Assembly: GCA_965219575.1 (NCBI GenBank)
Contig: OZ244779.1
Coordinates: forward strand, 300,769 to 364,768
Direction of reading: 5' to 3'
Source: Candidatus Oxydemutatoraceae bacterium
Lineage (GTDB): Bacteria > Pseudomonadota > Gammaproteobacteria > Poriferisulfidales > Oxydemutatoraceae
DNA: 64,000 nt
Shown: piece after piece, positions 14,878 through 61,461 of the stretch
Numbering within the stretch: the stretch's first letter is position 1
How the letters are laid out: each line of letters starts with the position of its first letter
Program-made: the position numbers and the translations under genes
The notes under the pieces: generated by a model
What the model saw: the letters and a program-made list of their open reading frames with translations, nothing else
What the model was told of the DNA's origin: nothing
Database searches by the model: none

Positions 14878-15991
14878 TTTCGGAGGTCTGCTTTTTTTCT
14901 TCTGGTTTGGGGGGGTTATTCAACAAAGAAAGGTCATAAACTTCGTTTAAGTGGTACATCATAGACCCCTTGTTCGGTGGGACAATCTTTACCGTCGCAT
15001 ATCTCATAATATTCTTTTCAACCAAATAAAGCATCACATTATCGATAACCGACTCCTGCTCACCGGAAACCAACCGCTTTAATTCCGGGAAGTCATAATA
15101 GCGATACACTCGGTAATCCTTTTTCAAGAAATCAAAGTGTTGCGGGTTGCGTATATCGGATGTGATATAGAGCCTGGAGCCTTTGCTGATAGCATAGCCG
15201 AGTAGCGTTTTTATCTGTTTCGGAGAGAACGCAAACTGAAGCATGGGCATTTCCTTCGGGCGCACACCCCGCTTACTTCCAACCTGCATGCAGGCATAAT
15301 ACGCTTCTCTTAAACTGATGCTACTTCCGCGTGCCTTAGTTTTTTCGTCAAAGCAAGATCTCATCGTGCCGACTTTATCCAAAAAATAATACTGCCCGGC
15401 GAGCGCATTTTCTCTGGTTGTGCCCATCGCTTCCAACACGATATCGGTAAACGCATTTACTTTTTGTGAATACGGAAGGTCTAGTAAAAATTCTGCTTTC
15501 TTATTCTGGGCGTATTTCTTGACATACTGGAATGGCGGGTCTCTTCTGATTATCACATCATAGCTTTGGTTCATCTCAGCGGAAACAACCTCGTCGCAAA
15601 CCGAACATATTTTGTTTGCCGTGTAATCATCTAAATTGAATTCTTCCTCCTTAAGCCACTTCTGACTATCCTTAACAATCGTGTCTACTTTATCGATTGA
15701 TCGAATTGTGATGCTCGACAAGTCTAGATAATCTTCAAAATCAAAATCATGTTTTTTGAAATAAAAGTTGTGCTCGGGGTGGATTGCAAATCTGCCGATT
15801 ATCGGTGTTCTGCCCAAGTCGAAGGCTTCTAGAAGAACCGTGTTAAGGATCTTAAACACTTGGTCTATATTAGGTTTGCTTTCCGTCATCGAGAAGACGA
15901 GATACTTGTCGTCTCTAGTGCTTTGCTCCACCATTGTTTTATTCAAATAATTTTTGATTTTATCCTTGATTGATGCCAGACATAGTGGCAT
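14870..15991 (-). CDS. Hypothetical protein, possible O-fucosyltransferase-like GT-B
   Basis: C-terminal YACMQV..LYITSD..LVEKNIM pattern resembles O-FucT, but the HxR motif is absent. Confidence 0.4.
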   Translation of the reverse strand: MPLCLASIKDKIKNYLNKTMVEQSTRDDKYLVFSMTESKPNIDQVFKILNTVLLEAFDLGRTPIIGRFAIHPEHNFYFKKHDFDFEDYLDLSSITIRSIDKVDTIVKDSQKWLKEEEFNLDDYTANKICSVCDEVVSAEMNQSYDVIIRRDPPFQYVKKYAQNKKAEFLLDLPYSQKVNAFTDIVLEAMGTTRENALAGQYYFLDKVGTMRSCFDEKTKARGSSISLREAYYACMQVGSKRGVRPKEMPMLQFAFSPKQIKTLLGYAISKGSRLYITSDIRNPQHFDFLKKDYRVYRYYDFPELKRLVSGEQESVIDNVMLYLVEKNIMRYATVKIVPPNKGSMMYHLNEVYDLSLLNNPPKPEEKKQTSESG

Positions 15992-16358
15992 GCGCCTGCC
16001 GTGCCATGTAATTGTTGGTGTTTTTTCTGTGTCGCCGGGTATAAATGGTATCTGATTGTTCTATGGGTTTGCATTGATATAATTTAACATTTCTTTGTCA
16101 AGTTATCTATATAATTCCTTTGGGATTTATGTCTTTTTTTCATTAAAGTAAAATGGCACCGCCGATTGAGCCGGCAGGTCGAACAAGCTAAGGCTTATTC
16201 TTATAAGTGCACGGTGACGGTCTTATTTCCGATAAATTTTGTTTGTAATTTGAGTAGTTTACAACATAACTAAAAATATTATAACTTTAGGGTTAAGCTA
16301 TGCTAATATAACTTTCTTAAAAATTATAAGATTAAAACCAAGTATAAGGATCTATTTT

Positions 16359-29632: not shown

Positions 29633-30218
29633 GCGATTATCGCGCCTGAAGTTGATCGGCATATTTTCTGCATTTGCCGGCCCCTTATTGATTGCGTCGG
29701 TGCTTTATTTCGGGCAAGGGTGGTTTGAATTCGGTTCTACCGAGCGCGGTCAGTTGTTGTCATCCGGGCAGACTCTCGATTCCGAAGATTTTAATTTAAT
29801 AAAGGATGATCAAACAAGCGATGCAAATGGCGCACCGTTGCTCGACGGTCGTTGGTTACTAGTGTTTCACGGCAGCCGAGCGTGTAATCTTTATTGTCAA
29901 GCGAGCCTATTCAAGATGCGTCAGGCGAGATTGGTGCTGGGGCGCGATGCCGCCCGCGTGCGCATCGTCTATTTGCTTGCCGATGCACAGCAACCCGATA
30001 CAGAGCTAAACCGATTATTGCTTCAATATCCGGCACTTTCGGTGTATCGGATAGAAGATACCGCAGATGTGCGCGCACAAGCACCGCAATTTCGACAAAA
30101 CCAAGTTTATATTGCAGATCCTTTCGGCAATTTGGTCATGTTTTACCTACCCGATGCTTATTCGCGAGACATCATCAAGGACTTTAAGCGTCTACTGAAA
30201 GCCTCCAAAATCGGTTAA
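29622..30218 (+). CDS. Cytochrome oxidase biogenesis protein (SCO/thioredoxin-like)
   Basis: N-terminal TM, CNLYC, DPFGNLVM, LLKASKIG; cox context. Confidence 0.7.
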   Translation: MNDKRLSRLKLIGIFSAFAGPLLIASVLYFGQGWFEFGSTERGQLLSSGQTLDSEDFNLIKDDQTSDANGAPLLDGRWLLVFHGSRACNLYCQASLFKMRQARLVLGRDAARVRIVYLLADAQQPDTELNRLLLQYPALSVYRIEDTADVRAQAPQFRQNQVYIADPFGNLVMFYLPDAYSRDIIKDFKRLLKASKIG

Positions 30219-31198
30219 TGAATACATCTTATTTCTTAAAGGGTGTTGGTGTCGCATTGGTGCTGACAATGCTGGTTATCGTATTGGGGGCGTATACGCG
30301 CCTCAGCGATGCCGGATTGGGTTGCCCCGATTGGCCGGGGTGCTACGGGCAGTTGCTGGGTGTGCCCGAGCAACCTGCCGAGATAGAACAAGCCGAACAG
30401 GCTTACCCCGGTTGGCGCGTCGAGGTTGATAAGGCATGGATTGAAATGGTACATCGCTACTTTGCCGGCGGGTTGGGTTTAATCATCCTAGCACTAACCG
30501 TATTCGCATTTATCAAAGCCAAGCACCGCCGAGGCTTAATGCTGTTTCTGCTCGGCTTGGTCACCTTCCAAGCACTGCTGGGCATGTGGACGGTCACTTT
30601 GTTATTGCAACCACTCGTCGTTGTTGCCCATTTACTGGGAGGCTTTACGGTGCTCTCATTATTGTGGTGGCTATACCTAGACCGATGGTTTGAACCGAAG
30701 CAGGCAACCGTTCACAACAAAGCCTTTTATAAAATTACTTTAGTCGCATTGGTTTTGTTGGTTATGCAAATCACACTCGGCGGATGGACCAGTTCCAATT
30801 ATGCGGCACTCGCCTGTATCGATTTTCCGCTATGTCAGGGTTTATGGGTACCCGATGCCGATTATCGTGGGGGATTTCAATTTTTGGTTGACGAACAAAA
30901 CTATGAATACGGTGTGTTGGATAGCCCGCAACGCACCGCAATACACTTTTCTCACCGCTTGGGCGCATTGATTGTCACGGTGTTCTTTGTGGTGTTCTTG
31001 GCAAAACTATTCGCTCAAGGCTCGGCACTCGTGCGGCGGGTTGCACTAGGCATTGCGTCCCTGCTGGTTGTTCAAATCATGCTGGGCATTTCAAATATCG
31101 TATTTTCTTTGCCGTTGGCTGTTGCGGTCTTGCATAATGCGGTCGCCGCACTATTACTTTTATCGTTATTGCTCTTATTGCGCGTGCTAAAATCATAA
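30218..31198 (+). CDS. ctaA: Heme A synthase COX15/CtaA
   Basis: AGLGCPDWPGC, EMVHRY, HRLGA. Confidence 0.93.
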   Translation: MNTSYFLKGVGVALVLTMLVIVLGAYTRLSDAGLGCPDWPGCYGQLLGVPEQPAEIEQAEQAYPGWRVEVDKAWIEMVHRYFAGGLGLIILALTVFAFIKAKHRRGLMLFLLGLVTFQALLGMWTVTLLLQPLVVVAHLLGGFTVLSLLWWLYLDRWFEPKQATVHNKAFYKITLVALVLLVMQITLGGWTSSNYAALACIDFPLCQGLWVPDADYRGGFQFLVDEQNYEYGVLDSPQRTAIHFSHRLGALIVTVFFVVFLAKLFAQGSALVRRVALGIASLLVVQIMLGISNIVFSLPLAVAVLHNAVAALLLLSLLLLLRVLKS

Positions 31199-32456
31199 AG
31201 AATTATACAGATAACTTGACAAATAAATGTTAAATTATATCAATGAAAACTCATAGAATAACCAGATACTGTTTGTACCCGGCGACCTATGAAAAGCATC
31301 AGCAATTACATGGAACTGCCGGAGCATGTCGTCATGTTTGGAATCACTTTGTAGCTAAGTTAAAGGACGAATACGAGTATTGCGGCGAGAGCCGGTTTAG
31401 CTTTTTCACCATAGGCAAGCAATTTACGACATTGCGAAAGCATTGCGACAAGTGGTTGCAAGGTTATTCCGCTTATATCGTGAAATCATCATTACAACCG
31501 ATAGAAATAGCATACAAAGGATTTTTCAAAGGCAACAACGGATTGCCGAAGTTTCACGGCAAATATACGCATAGCCCGTCTTTCCCGATCAATTATCAAT
31601 CGGCAAAACTATCGGGTTGTCACTTGTATATACAGAAAGTCGGCTGGATGAAGTTTGCCGGTGGCGATAGGTATCAAGGTGAGAAGTTTGTATCGGGTCA
31701 AGTGAAGTATGAGTGCGGTCATTGGTATGCATATATTTGTTATGAAGTAGAGCTAGCGGACAAACTGCACATGCTAAAGGAAGTGGGTTTGGATAGGAAT
31801 GTGGGGCAGATAGCATTGTCGGATGGAACACTGTATCACTTACCCGACTTAAAGCGTAAGGAAGCAAGGCGTAGGCGTTATCAACGAATGGTTGCTAGAC
31901 GGGTCAAGGGGAGCAACAGACGCAAGCTAGCGAAGTATAGATTACAGAAAGCGTATCAAGCGGAGCGATTTGCGAGGGCGAATTGGTGTCATCAAACCAG
32001 CAAGCTCATAGCAGATAAGTACGATATTGTTTATATGGAAGGATTAAATACAGCAGAAATGACGAAGTCGGCGAAGGGGACGATAGACAGTCCGGGTAAG
32101 CATGTGAAAGCAAAGTCAGGTTTGAATAGGGAGATACTAAAGAGTGGCTGGTATAAACTGGAGCAATGCTTAAGCTACAAAGCACAGGTAGAGAAAGTGC
32201 CGGCACACTACACGAGTCAGACCTGTAATAAATGTAGCGCGATAGATAAAGCAAGCCGCAAAACACAATCAATTTTCAAGTGTCGGTATTGCGGACACGA
32301 GGACAATGCGGACATCAATGCTGCATTAAACATTATGGCGGTTGGGAGTACCGCTACTGGGTGTGGAGATTGCAACATTGGTTGGTCTGTGAAGTGCCAA
32401 AAAGATAGGGTGGCGAGGCGGTCTAACAAGTCTGTCAAGTTACCTATATAATTCCC
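31198..32456. mobile_element. Non-autonomous TIR element carrying tnpB, 8-bp TSD AAATCATA
   Basis: 24-bp inverted ends (20/24 identical); AAATCATA at 31190-31197 and 32457-32464. Confidence 0.85.
31243..32451 (+). CDS. tnpB: RNA-guided endonuclease TnpB
   Basis: N-terminal CRHVWN, RuvC residues VGLD / YMEGL / NADINAALNI, zinc finger CNKC..CRYC. Confidence 0.93.
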   Translation: MKTHRITRYCLYPATYEKHQQLHGTAGACRHVWNHFVAKLKDEYEYCGESRFSFFTIGKQFTTLRKHCDKWLQGYSAYIVKSSLQPIEIAYKGFFKGNNGLPKFHGKYTHSPSFPINYQSAKLSGCHLYIQKVGWMKFAGGDRYQGEKFVSGQVKYECGHWYAYICYEVELADKLHMLKEVGLDRNVGQIALSDGTLYHLPDLKRKEARRRRYQRMVARRVKGSNRRKLAKYRLQKAYQAERFARANWCHQTSKLIADKYDIVYMEGLNTAEMTKSAKGTIDSPGKHVKAKSGLNREILKSGWYKLEQCLSYKAQVEKVPAHYTSQTCNKCSAIDKASRKTQSIFKCRYCGHEDNADINAALNIMAVGSTATGCGDCNIGWSVKCQKDRVARRSNKSVKLPI

Positions 32457-32483
32457 AAATCATAGGCTCGAAGCTCAGAGACG

Positions 32484-33386
32484 ATGACTTTTTCCACACT
32501 ACAAATGGATGCGACACGGCTTCGCGTCGGAAATTATTTTGAGGTATGCAAACCCAGGGTGGTTGCGGTAATGCTGTTCACCGCACTGGTCGGCATGTTG
32601 GTTGCCACACCGTTGACCTTGCCGTTTAGTACGATGCTTGCAGCGATGATCGGCATTGCGTTGGTGTCTGCTTCCGCCGCCGCCATCAATCATGTTGCCG
32701 ATCATAGAATAGACGCACTGATGCAGCGCACCCGAAATCGTCCGCTACCCAGCGGCGCACTATCGGCACGCGAAGTATTGACTTTTGCCGGAGTAATCGG
32801 CACCGTAGGCACACTGATATTGGTGCTTTTTGTTAATGTACTCACCGCGGCATTAACCCTACTATCGCTAGTCGGCTATGCGGTCGTCTATACGCGCTTC
32901 TTAAAATACGCAACGCCGCAAAACATCGTTATCGGCGGTGCTGCCGGTGCGACACCACCGATGCTCGGTTGGACGGCTGCCACTGGGCAGTTGGATTTCG
33001 GCGCATTTTTATTATTTCTAATCGTTTTTGTCTGGACACCACCGCATTTTTGGGCACTGGCGATGTGCAGAAAAAAAGAGTACGCCGCAGCCGGGGTGCC
33101 GATGCTACCGGTCACGCACGGTGAAGATTTTACCCGCCTGCAGATACTGCTCTATATCATTCTGTTAACACTGGTTACGACGCTTCCCTATGTAACCGGT
33201 TTGTCGGGACCGGTATATTTATTCTCGGCAACACTGCTAAACGGGGTGTTTATATATTACGGCTTGGTTCTGAGGATAAATCGCACCCCGAATAAAGCGA
33301 TGGAAACATTCGGATTTTCCATCGTCTACATTATGTTGCTGTTCACGGCCTTGCTTGTTGATCGCTATATCGGTTTATTGATTTAA
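32484..33386 (+). CDS. cyoE: Heme O synthase
   Basis: CKPRV, DALMQRTRNRP, WTPPHFW. Confidence 0.95.
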   Translation: MTFSTLQMDATRLRVGNYFEVCKPRVVAVMLFTALVGMLVATPLTLPFSTMLAAMIGIALVSASAAAINHVADHRIDALMQRTRNRPLPSGALSAREVLTFAGVIGTVGTLILVLFVNVLTAALTLLSLVGYAVVYTRFLKYATPQNIVIGGAAGATPPMLGWTAATGQLDFGAFLLFLIVFVWTPPHFWALAMCRKKEYAAAGVPMLPVTHGEDFTRLQILLYIILLTLVTTLPYVTGLSGPVYLFSATLLNGVFIYYGLVLRINRTPNKAMETFGFSIVYIMLLFTALLVDRYIGLLI

Positions 33387-60331: not shown

Positions 60332-61084
60332 GGTACTTGACTAGTTTAGGGAGTACGATTTGATAAAATAACTAGTAATGACAACACCTAACAGACATTT
60401 TAGAAGGGCACATATTTCAAACAGGAAAATAAGGCAAATTGTGAGGTATTTTGCCCTTGATCTGAGTGCAACCCAAATCGCACAAGCAGCCGGGGTCAAT
60501 AGAAATACCGCGAATAGATATGTCAATATAATCCGAGAAAGAATTGCACAACACTGCGAGCAGACGAGCCTATTCTCTGGCGAGGTAGAGTTCGATGAGT
60601 CCTACTTCGGTGGTCGCAAAAAGGGAGACAAAAGAGGTAGAGGTGCACCGAACAAAGTACCGGTATTCGGCATATTAAAAAGAGATGGGAAGGTCTATAC
60701 GCAGGTGATACGCAATGCTTCAAAGAGCGAGATACGACCTATTATCAAGCGTTTAGTGGGACACAGGAGTACTATATACACAGATAAATGGAGAGCTTAT
60801 GACGGGTTGGTGTTGAATGGATACAAACACTACCGCATCAATCATTCAAAGACACTGGGCAGTGGTACTAGACATATCAATGGCATTGAAAACTTCTGGG
60901 AATGGGCCAAAAGGAGATTAACAAAGTTCTGCGGCGTGTCGAGAAAACATTTCCACCTTCATCTAAAAGAATGCGAGTGGCGATTCAATCACAGACACCT
61001 TTCAGCCTCCCAAAAGTATGAGATGCTAATGAAGATGGTAAGGGATATTTGAGTGGGACTTTGTCCCTAAACTAGTCAAGTACC
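60332..61084. mobile_element. IS1595-family (IS1016-like) insertion sequence, 753 bp
   Basis: Perfect 21-bp TIR GGTACTTGACTAGTTTAGGGA; flanks AAGTTGAG and TAGTTGAG. Confidence 0.92.
60378..61052 (+). CDS. IS1595-family DDE transposase
   Basis: VEFDESY, IYTD, INGIENFW, ECEWRFN. Confidence 0.93.
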   Translation: MTTPNRHFRRAHISNRKIRQIVRYFALDLSATQIAQAAGVNRNTANRYVNIIRERIAQHCEQTSLFSGEVEFDESYFGGRKKGDKRGRGAPNKVPVFGILKRDGKVYTQVIRNASKSEIRPIIKRLVGHRSTIYTDKWRAYDGLVLNGYKHYRINHSKTLGSGTRHINGIENFWEWAKRRLTKFCGVSRKHFHLHLKECEWRFNHRHLSASQKYEMLMKMVRDI

Positions 61085-61461
61085 TAGTTGAGATATTAAC
61101 ATCCGAACCTTTCTCTTCAAATTTAGAAACTTTTACTATCTTTCTATATGAGGGGTTACCTTTTTCTAAAAGTTCACCTTTGACGGATCGTCTCTTAAAT
61201 GATCCAAAATGAATTTCTATTTCAGGGATTGTTCGTAAAGCTCCTAGATAAACATCCTGTCTTTGTCTTACACCGGGGTTACTGTCGTTGGGAATCACCT
61301 TTGCCGTAAAATAGCGTATTTTTGAAATTTTACAATCCTTAAAACTGAAAGACTGAATAAGTGCCTTTAAGTCTAGCCACTTATATTTCGTCTTTTTTAT
61401 ACTGTGATAAAGATTGAAACCATCTACATAGATAATATAATTTTTCAAATTAAACCTACCT

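Follow-up and report, generated by a model that had tools for sequence, protein, structure and literature searches.

A tnpB gene in a probable non-autonomous transposon of the IS1595 lineage, and a one-sided purine signature beside its target-site duplications

The stretch of DNA analysed here, hereafter the window, comprises 64,000 nt from the genome of a Candidatus Oxydemutatoraceae bacterium (contig OZ244779.1, positions 300,769 to 364,768 of the forward strand), and positions are given in window coordinates unless marked as genome. Between the host genes ctaA and cyoE lies a unit of 1259 bp (31198-32456) that holds tnpB as its only gene, is bounded by terminal inverted repeats (TIRs) matching at 20/24 positions (a repeat search returned a 22-nt core at 91%) and is placed between two exact 8-bp copies of AAATCATA, its target-site duplication (TSD). 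These elements can all be read directly in the DNA, as they had been in a previous description made from the letters alone (the sequence-only reading), and the pattern of inverted repeat plus duplication is far beyond chance. The features of the locus are the following:

31198..31221, + strand: left TIR, 24 bp, AAGAATTATACAGATAACTTGACA, with the tip AA in place of the GG of the family
32433..32456, − strand: right TIR, 24 bp, whose reverse complement is GGGAATTATATAGGTAACTTGACA
31190..31197: left TSD copy, 8 bp, AAATCATA, read from the sequence and present as a single copy in the empty sites of the congeners G003, G004 and G001
32457..32464: right TSD copy, 8 bp, AAATCATA, predicted from the architecture of TnpB to supply the first 8 nt of a guide extending to about 32476
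31243..32451, + strand: tnpB, 402 aa, the sole long open reading frame (ORF) of the unit, supported by ORF and domain matches, with its stop codon within the right TIR
32307..32456, + strand: predicted omega-RNA scaffold, from covariation in 45 elements, with helices at 32338-32354, 32360-32364/32394-32398 and 32370-32376/32381-32385 and a terminal hairpin at 32419-32437 that runs into the right TIR
31188..31189, + strand: candidate transposon-adjacent motif (TAM), the TA directly 5' of the left TSD copy, which is host DNA and is kept in the empty sites of congeners
30218..31198, + strand: ctaA (COX15-CtaA), the upstream host gene, with its stop codon across the TSD/element junction
32484..33386, + strand: gene of a UbiA-family prenyltransferase (cyoE/ctaB-like), the downstream host gene
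15971..16119, − strand: solo left end (147 bp) belonging to the same family of elements, 82% identity

The protein encoded by tnpB has the make-up of a TnpB/OMEGA nuclease, with a helix-turn-helix, a RuvC domain and a zinc-ribbon domain (Pfam HTH_OrfB_IS605, OrfB_IS605 and Cas12f1-like_TNB, respectively). It matches the NCBIfam model guided_TnpB ('RNA-guided endonuclease TnpB family') at 186 bits and falls short of the cut-offs set for the NCBIfam models of IS200 and IS607 TnpBs. Residues D184, E266 and D357 and the cysteines C328/C331/C347/C350 are invariant in an alignment of 10 sequences of relatives, and the three acidic residues match the catalytic positions of a chain with ISDra2 numbering retrieved by a PDB search, presumably those designated D191/E278/D361 in ISDra2. 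The D-E-D triad and the zinc finger are therefore intact, as the sequence-only reading had maintained.

The insertion can be appreciated by comparison with the closest relatives. In three of the four genomes of the same genus (G003, G004 and G001) the ctaA-cyoE junction reads ...GCGCGTGCTA AAATCATA GTC..., with one AAATCATA and no element, and the fourth genome has diverged at this spot and is likewise without the element. The window copy was thus inserted between ctaA and cyoE after the species split from its closest sequenced congeners. Metagenome contigs from four DNA runs of two studies bridged both junctions of the occupied site, and no empty-site joint across the element was present in them, a result that is uninformative on rare empty alleles because contigs drop rare variants. 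At 31196-31198 the natural stop codon of ctaA, a TAG formed in the empty sites by the last two bases of the TSD and the next base, is swapped for a TAA formed by the end of the TSD and the first base of the element, and the length of the CtaA protein is the same before and after the insertion.

The genome, a single contig of 2.37 Mb, carries five full-length copies of the element with 80-90% pairwise identity, all of them with intact ORFs of 402-405 aa. Three of the five have perfect TSDs, all different (AAATCATA, AATGAGTG and ATTTTTCT), one has a duplication matching at 7/8 positions and one has none. Four short TIR pairs (140-226 bp), one degenerate pair of 1839 bp and solo ends are also present, and the TIR is found 23 times in the genome when up to 5 substitutions are allowed. 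Of 31 related genomes, 12 contain the TIR pattern and none the reversed control. Hence, the two checks proposed in the sequence-only reading, namely an empty ctaA-cyoE site in relatives and further tnpB copies with the same TIR and different 8-bp TSDs, were both borne out, the latter within the genome and clade-wide. As a separate observation, the TIR pairs at genome 663666-665504 (L006) and at 965778-967676 of G003 (L093, L112), which span 1839 and 1899 bp, contain pieces of tnpB in rearranged form together with about 1.2 kb of other sequence whose ORFs measure 152-208 aa, and are probably nested insertions or rearrangements.

The nature of the ends of the element indicates which transposase could move it. 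A search of the genome for IS1595 transposases with Pfam PF12762 yielded two types. Type B is present in eight near-identical copies of about 750 bp with a 226-aa frame, one of which lies in the window (about 60332-61087). Its ends (GGTACTTGACTAG... / GGTACTTGACTAGTTTAGGG) are unrelated to those of the TnpB element, so the earlier remark that the IS1595 copy in the window has different ends was correct. Type A has three copies of 1348 bp outside the window (genome 458819-460166, 2344320-2345667 and 497452-498799; L017-L019), with perfect 8-bp TSDs and a transposase of 319 aa containing the Zn_ribbon_IS1595 and DDE_Tnp_IS1595 domains. Its ends read GGGAATTATATACTTAAATACATAA, their first 12 nt are identical to those of the TnpB element, and type A is accordingly a candidate helper in this genome on grounds of end similarity; the helper could be type A or a transposase that has since been lost.

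Closer matches exist in relatives. An element of G004 (L044) has the identical 24-mer at one end and 22/24 positions at the other, encloses an IS1595 transposase of 306 aa and has a sister copy in G001. In addition, G006 contains eight transposase elements with the same TIR and G022, a member of another family, contains two, all with perfect 8-bp TSDs. The same TIR thereby bounds proteins of 306-324 aa that match PF12762 and PF12760 of Pfam and NF033547 of NCBIfam. In this way the autonomous transposase with the same ends, whose existence the sequence-only reading had suggested as a further check, was found. The TnpB element and the transposase element of G004 have only their ends in common (30/32 positions on the left and 24/24 on the right), and therefore the tnpB unit is best described as a non-autonomous element of the IS1595 lineage. 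It has the 8-bp TSD of IS1595 and a TIR common to elements encoding DDE_Tnp_IS1595 transposases; tnpB being its single ORF, it lacks a transposase gene of its own and must be a non-autonomous derivative. The TnpB-element ends read GGGAATTAT, which would fit GGnnATTAT, the end consensus of the ISNwi group.

The association is not a peculiarity of one genome. Two scans of contigs, with one genome per species, found 36 and then 446 tblastn relatives, of which the best 80 of the 446 were used; most of these relatives come from sponge-associated metagenome-assembled genomes (MAGs) of Porisulfidus, Arenicellales, Caldilineaceae, Poriferihabitaceae, Azotimanducus and Oxydemutator. An unbiased finder accepted pairs in which a TIR matching at 13/20 positions or more and a TSD of 7/8 or better lay no further than 450 bp from the TnpB match. 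The 108 loci (both scans, including duplicates between them, plus the five own copies) gave 51 TIR+TSD pairs. The pairs of L090, L171 and L174 were discarded as spurious, their ends not being of the GGG type, which left 48 distinct insertions with GGG(A/G)(A/C)TTAT-type ends. Two further multi-copy genomes (55 loci) added 29 insertions. A scan of metagenomes (55 loci) contributed two more elements that have GGG-type ends and a TSD, with 56% and 41% identity, both among the three loci with at least 41% identity. Among the 52 metagenome loci with 36% identity or less, which double as a negative control for the finder, GGG-type ends were absent and only five low-scoring matches with other ends were obtained. 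TnpBs down to about 40% identity, mostly from genomes of sponge symbionts, are hence bounded by GGG(A/G)(A/C)TTAT-type ends and 8-bp duplications, and constitute a large TnpB clade, mostly from sponge-associated bacteria, that is linked throughout to IS1595-type ends. The largest number of copies was seen in G032, a Caldilineaceae MAG (L390-L435), which has at least 40 TnpB elements with 80-93% identity and only degraded fragments of IS1595 transposases; several of these are separated from a TnpB copy by no more than a few hundred bp.

Several facts weigh against this assignment or limit it. The left tip of the window copy is mutated, AA being unique to it and GG being found in all other copies, so this copy may no longer be mobilisable. 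The PF12762 search of this genome, which returned types A and B only, gave no transposase with the full 24-bp TIR, and because type A matches just 12/24 TIR positions current mobility in this genome is unproven. No tnpB was found within 1.5 kb of the transposase at any of 80 IS1595 loci, so that no autonomous ancestor with both genes was seen, and the whole clade therefore looks non-autonomous. Finally, 49 of the 108 loci are without a TIR+TSD pair under the criteria of the finder, many of them showing clear TIRs and decayed or exchanged flanks. An instance of flank exchange was observed between two IS1595 copies of an Arenicellales MAG (L224/L226), the right flank of one being the left flank of the other (CTATTAAT), which indicates recombination between copies as judged from the flanking sequences; exchange of this kind explains some of the elements that have no matching TSDs.

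Boundaries of the IS1595 transposase elements were taken from copy-to-copy comparison, and many of these elements are elongated by passengers; several of the 80 transposase loci carry other genes downstream of the transposase. Passenger ORFs of the same IS1595 lineage were observed in a Nitrospirales MAG (L210-L217, L244) and in a Nitrosomonadaceae MAG (L261-L267), in elements of 2.0-2.4 kb with multiple identical copies, and consist of a 262-aa ORF and a 288-aa ORF with a TSPPY motif, which we guess, and only guess, to be glycosyltransferase-like and DNA methyltransferase-like, respectively.

The 3' part of the TnpB elements is predicted to encode a structured RNA. A predicted structure is common to the 3'-terminal 230 nt of 45 elements, with a hairpin (32338-32354 in the window copy), a long-range helix (32360-32364 with 32394-32398) that encloses a covarying tetraloop hairpin, and a terminal hairpin whose 3' strand is the inner part of the right repeat, after which follow some 8-20 nt of repeat and then the flank. 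The 25 pairs were evaluated on a MAFFT alignment against 500 shuffles. The paired cells amounted to 77.3% in the observed alignment vs 66.9% in the shuffled ones, and the covariation score to 0.310 vs 0.160, with slid controls at or below 0.129; in neither case did any of the 500 shuffles reach the observed value. Two of the helices are 92-96% paired and include compensatory changes. These values apply to a structure taken from the fold of one member and lying partly within coding sequence. No Rfam family matched 31000-32700 at E<=1, and a look-up of sequencing runs listed no RNA run with the element. A sigma-70 scan gave three promoter-like sites vs a shuffle mean of 3.0, and since there is no excess a TTGACA promoter considered in the left repeat was dropped. 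A perfect TATAAT with CTAACA 18 nt before it was observed in the right repeat (32423-32452), facing outward to cyoE; it is a consensus match only, with no excess over shuffles.

The most distinctive property of the TnpB elements was found outside them. When each element is oriented by its tnpB and the base directly 5' of the left TSD copy is called −1, that base is always a purine in the first set, 37 of the 48 insertions having G, 11 having A and none C or T (1.11 bits). Weaker preferences in the same 48 insertions are T at −2 and A at −3, each in 26/48. Eight of the 11 insertions with A at −1, the subfamily of the window copy among them, have TA. The bias is one-sided, the mirror position on the right being indifferent (complement of +1: T18 A12 G10 C8). 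Elements of the same TIR family that contain only a transposase and have good TSDs (21 insertions) showed a purine in 10/21 cases on the left and in 11/21 on the right, which differs from 48/48 with p = 2e-7 in a Fisher test.

Because the purine hypothesis arose on the first set, fresh data were taken. The 55 loci of the two multi-copy genomes gave 35 pairs, from which five already seen and one mis-registered were dropped; the 29 new insertions have G at −1 in 28 cases and A in one. The two metagenome elements have A and G. In total a purine occupies −1 in 79/79 insertions of TnpB elements, 31 of them gathered after the set that gave rise to the hypothesis. Mapped on the TnpB tree, A at −1 occurs mainly in the larger clade of the window copy, yet it switches with G between close relatives; what is strictly required would thus seem to be a purine, with clade preferences for TA or for AGG/ATG/NTG.

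Trivial sources of the bias were discarded. A 9-bp duplication or misplaced boundaries do not account for the −1 base, as the right copy always follows the terminal C of the repeat and the TA persists in the empty site. Start codons at −3 to −1 do not explain it either: NTG is frequent, but AGG, NCG and NAG are also present. Stop codons at these positions are excluded in the window, where the natural stop of ctaA is the TAG made up of the end of the TSD and the following base.

Position −1 is exactly where a TAM would be expected if the omega-RNA exits through the right repeat and its guide starts with the TSD. An empty site presents, in this order, the motif, the TSD and the right flank. Once the element is inserted, the invariant ...TTCCC of the repeat precedes the right TSD copy, and this would shield the element from its own nuclease.

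Taken together, it is very probable, judging from the sequence comparisons, that the unit is a non-autonomous member of the IS1595 lineage whose cargo is an intact tnpB with a 3' omega-RNA region and which, devoid of a transposase, is moved in trans. The TIRs, the TSDs, the empty site and the transposase elements with the same ends uphold in this respect the proposal of the sequence-only reading. IS1595-family DDE transposases would recognise the TIRs of about 24 bp, mobilise the unit in trans and make cuts staggered by 8 bp. The omega-RNA would read through the right repeat, and the guide would consist of the duplication and the right flank.

The possible role of the nuclease can be formulated with an evenly balanced degree of belief. 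TnpB would be functionally coupled to a DDE transposon without target specificity, having as guide the variable 8-bp TSD plus the right flank and as TAM the 1-3 nt that end in the purine 5' of the left duplication. Under this proposal, either TnpB would help to place the right end at a TAM, or insertions next to a TAM would be fixed preferentially, for example through cleavage of empty sister copies in polyploid symbionts followed by recombinational repair. If the fixation route is true, it would represent an intracellular gene drive for a cut-and-paste element.

Alternative explanations differ much in their plausibility. Elements with tnpB alone are usually filed under IS200/IS605 (IS1341 group), and the IS200_TnpB model does score 154.9 bits with this protein, though its cut-off is 425. 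That the unit is an ordinary element of that kind, with coincidental inverted and 8-bp repeats, is nevertheless next to impossible, as the TIR recurs with different 8-bp TSDs in dozens of copies and genomes, the empty site retains one copy of the octamer, no tetra- or pentanucleotide is conserved at the target, and the same ends bound IS1595 transposases. A TnpB exapted as a TldR-like RNA-guided regulator, or for another host function, between old repeats would be in line with the persistence of five intact ORFs in copies as old as 80-90% identity implies, which shows purifying selection on the protein. TldR-type proteins are inactivated, whereas the RuvC D-E-D triad and the zinc finger are invariant here, and the presence of at least 40 copies with different TSDs in one genome, together with short non-coding derivatives having the same ends, is the behaviour of a transposon; exaptation is consequently very improbable.

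The main rival concerns the signature. The purine at −1 could reflect a target preference of the helper transposase, or an asymmetric transpososome assembled on TnpB-type ends, with TnpB as a passive passenger and no TAM involved. DDE transposases often show weak target preferences, the TSDs are rich in A and T at positions 1-3 and 6-7, the motif that carries information is short, with only −1 being strict, and A and G alternate at −1 in close TnpBs (L078 has ATA, L077 ATG and L079 TAG). The transposase-only controls argue against such a preference, since they are unbiased on both sides, including the 10 insertions of G006 and G022 with the TAACTTGACA repeat. Furthermore, the bias of the TnpB elements is one-sided and falls exactly on the position predicted for a TAM, and owing to the terminal CCC of the right end the corresponding base in the occupied site is a pyrimidine. 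We thus regard a mere target preference as unlikely, though clearly less so than the two preceding explanations.

A footprint of the proposed coupling between nuclease and transposon may exist in another copy of the genome. Copy c2 (genome 229776-231034), in a region outside the window (genome 226749-231072; loci L002, L073, L278 and L279), has a counterpart in the congener G003 at the identical site and with the identical TSD. Over the 2.27 kb of left flank that reach back to a type B insertion sequence present only in this genome, identity between both is 99.7%, and in the element it is 99.4%. On the right flank the first mismatch appears 38 nt past the right end, identity being then about 80-93%, and to the left of the type B insertion sequence it is 83%. 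This profile points to a recent tract of recombination between lineages that includes the element and stops no more than 38 nt beyond its right end. The end of the tract possibly coincides with the place where a TnpB cut guided by TSD and flank would fall, a single case that carries no weight by itself; if homing does occur, the c2 tract would be its footprint. No step in divergence was found at the window copy in the comparison with G003, G004 and G001, identity to G003 being uniformly about 92% on both sides.

These elements bear on how OMEGA nucleases can serve transposons other than IS605 and IS607, in which excision without scar and a fixed target site provide a TAM for free. They form an entire TnpB clade confined to IS1595-type ends, reaching tens of copies per genome, and its one-sided signature, not found in the transposase-only relatives, makes the cooperation between an OMEGA nuclease and a DDE transposon without site specificity directly testable. 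The clade also offers compact nucleases (about 400 aa), possibly with very short TAMs, and implies for annotation that the tnpB genes of such elements should not be filed as IS200/IS605.

Among known systems, the closest from the side of the transposase is presumably the ISNwi1 group of IS1595 in the ISfinder classification, with its passenger-carrying forms. The resemblance lies in the 8-bp TSD, in helpers whose transposase combines a zinc ribbon with DDE_Tnp_IS1595, and in the passengers that relatives have downstream of the transposase; the difference, in that the TnpB element has lost or never had the transposase and that its cargo is an RNA-guided nuclease. With the tnpB-only elements of the IS1341 group it has in common a single tnpB, non-autonomy and an omega-RNA expected at the 3' end. 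The 24-bp TIRs, the variable 8-bp TSD, the DDE helper and the lack of a fixed target oligonucleotide set it apart from IS200/IS605 elements, which have neither TIRs nor TSD, possess subterminal hairpins and insert 3' of a fixed site of 4-5 nt that doubles as TAM, according to the parts consulted of a 2026 review (PMC13565253).

The association of TnpB with DDE transposases as such is of a published kind. Altae-Tran et al. (2023, PNAS; PMC10691335) described six DDE-associated branches, DDE-1 to DDE-6, all with inverted terminal repeats, and in the text consulted reported that some solo TnpBs have the same ends as transposase-bearing elements, which implies mobilisation in trans. The element of the window resembles them in the inverted terminal repeats around tnpB, in the proximity of the 3' end of tnpB to the end of the transposon and in solo copies with the ends of transposase-bearing elements, and differs from them in that no element with both genes was seen here and in the family of transposase: the only one named in that text is IS630 (DDE-6), and IS1595 has 0 occurrences in the main text, although the supplements may already contain the clade. 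The 2026 review, as far as consulted, lists ISL2, IS630 and IS1031 as TnpB-linked DDE families, without IS1595, and attributes the rarity of DDE pairings to a target recognition by the nuclease that is too inflexible (PMC13565253). A literature search for a TnpB-IS1595 pairing, for ISNwi1 and for TnpB in sponge symbionts returned nothing on the pairing. The qualification of the pairing as atypical in the sequence-only reading can be kept in so far as IS1595 is not named for TnpB in the literature covered, and has to be relaxed because inverted repeats and solo copies moved in trans were already known for DDE-linked TnpBs in 2023; the IS1595 pairing, the insertion-site signature, the RNA structure and the possible homing footprint are absent from the literature covered, in the parts consulted.

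A further analogue in architecture is the Fanzor1-only, non-autonomous TIR/TSD transposon of a Spodoptera frugiperda ascovirus (Yoon et al. 2023, PMC10711439, consulted in part). In both, a nuclease of the TnpB family is the sole gene of a cut-and-paste element with TIRs and a short TSD, and in the ascovirus element the guide RNA reads across TIR and TSD, as would the omega-RNA proposed here. The ascovirus element belongs to the eukaryotic or viral world, and its TSD was proposed to be part of the RNA scaffold; as the 8-bp TSD is variable in the elements described here, it would have to be guide and not scaffold.

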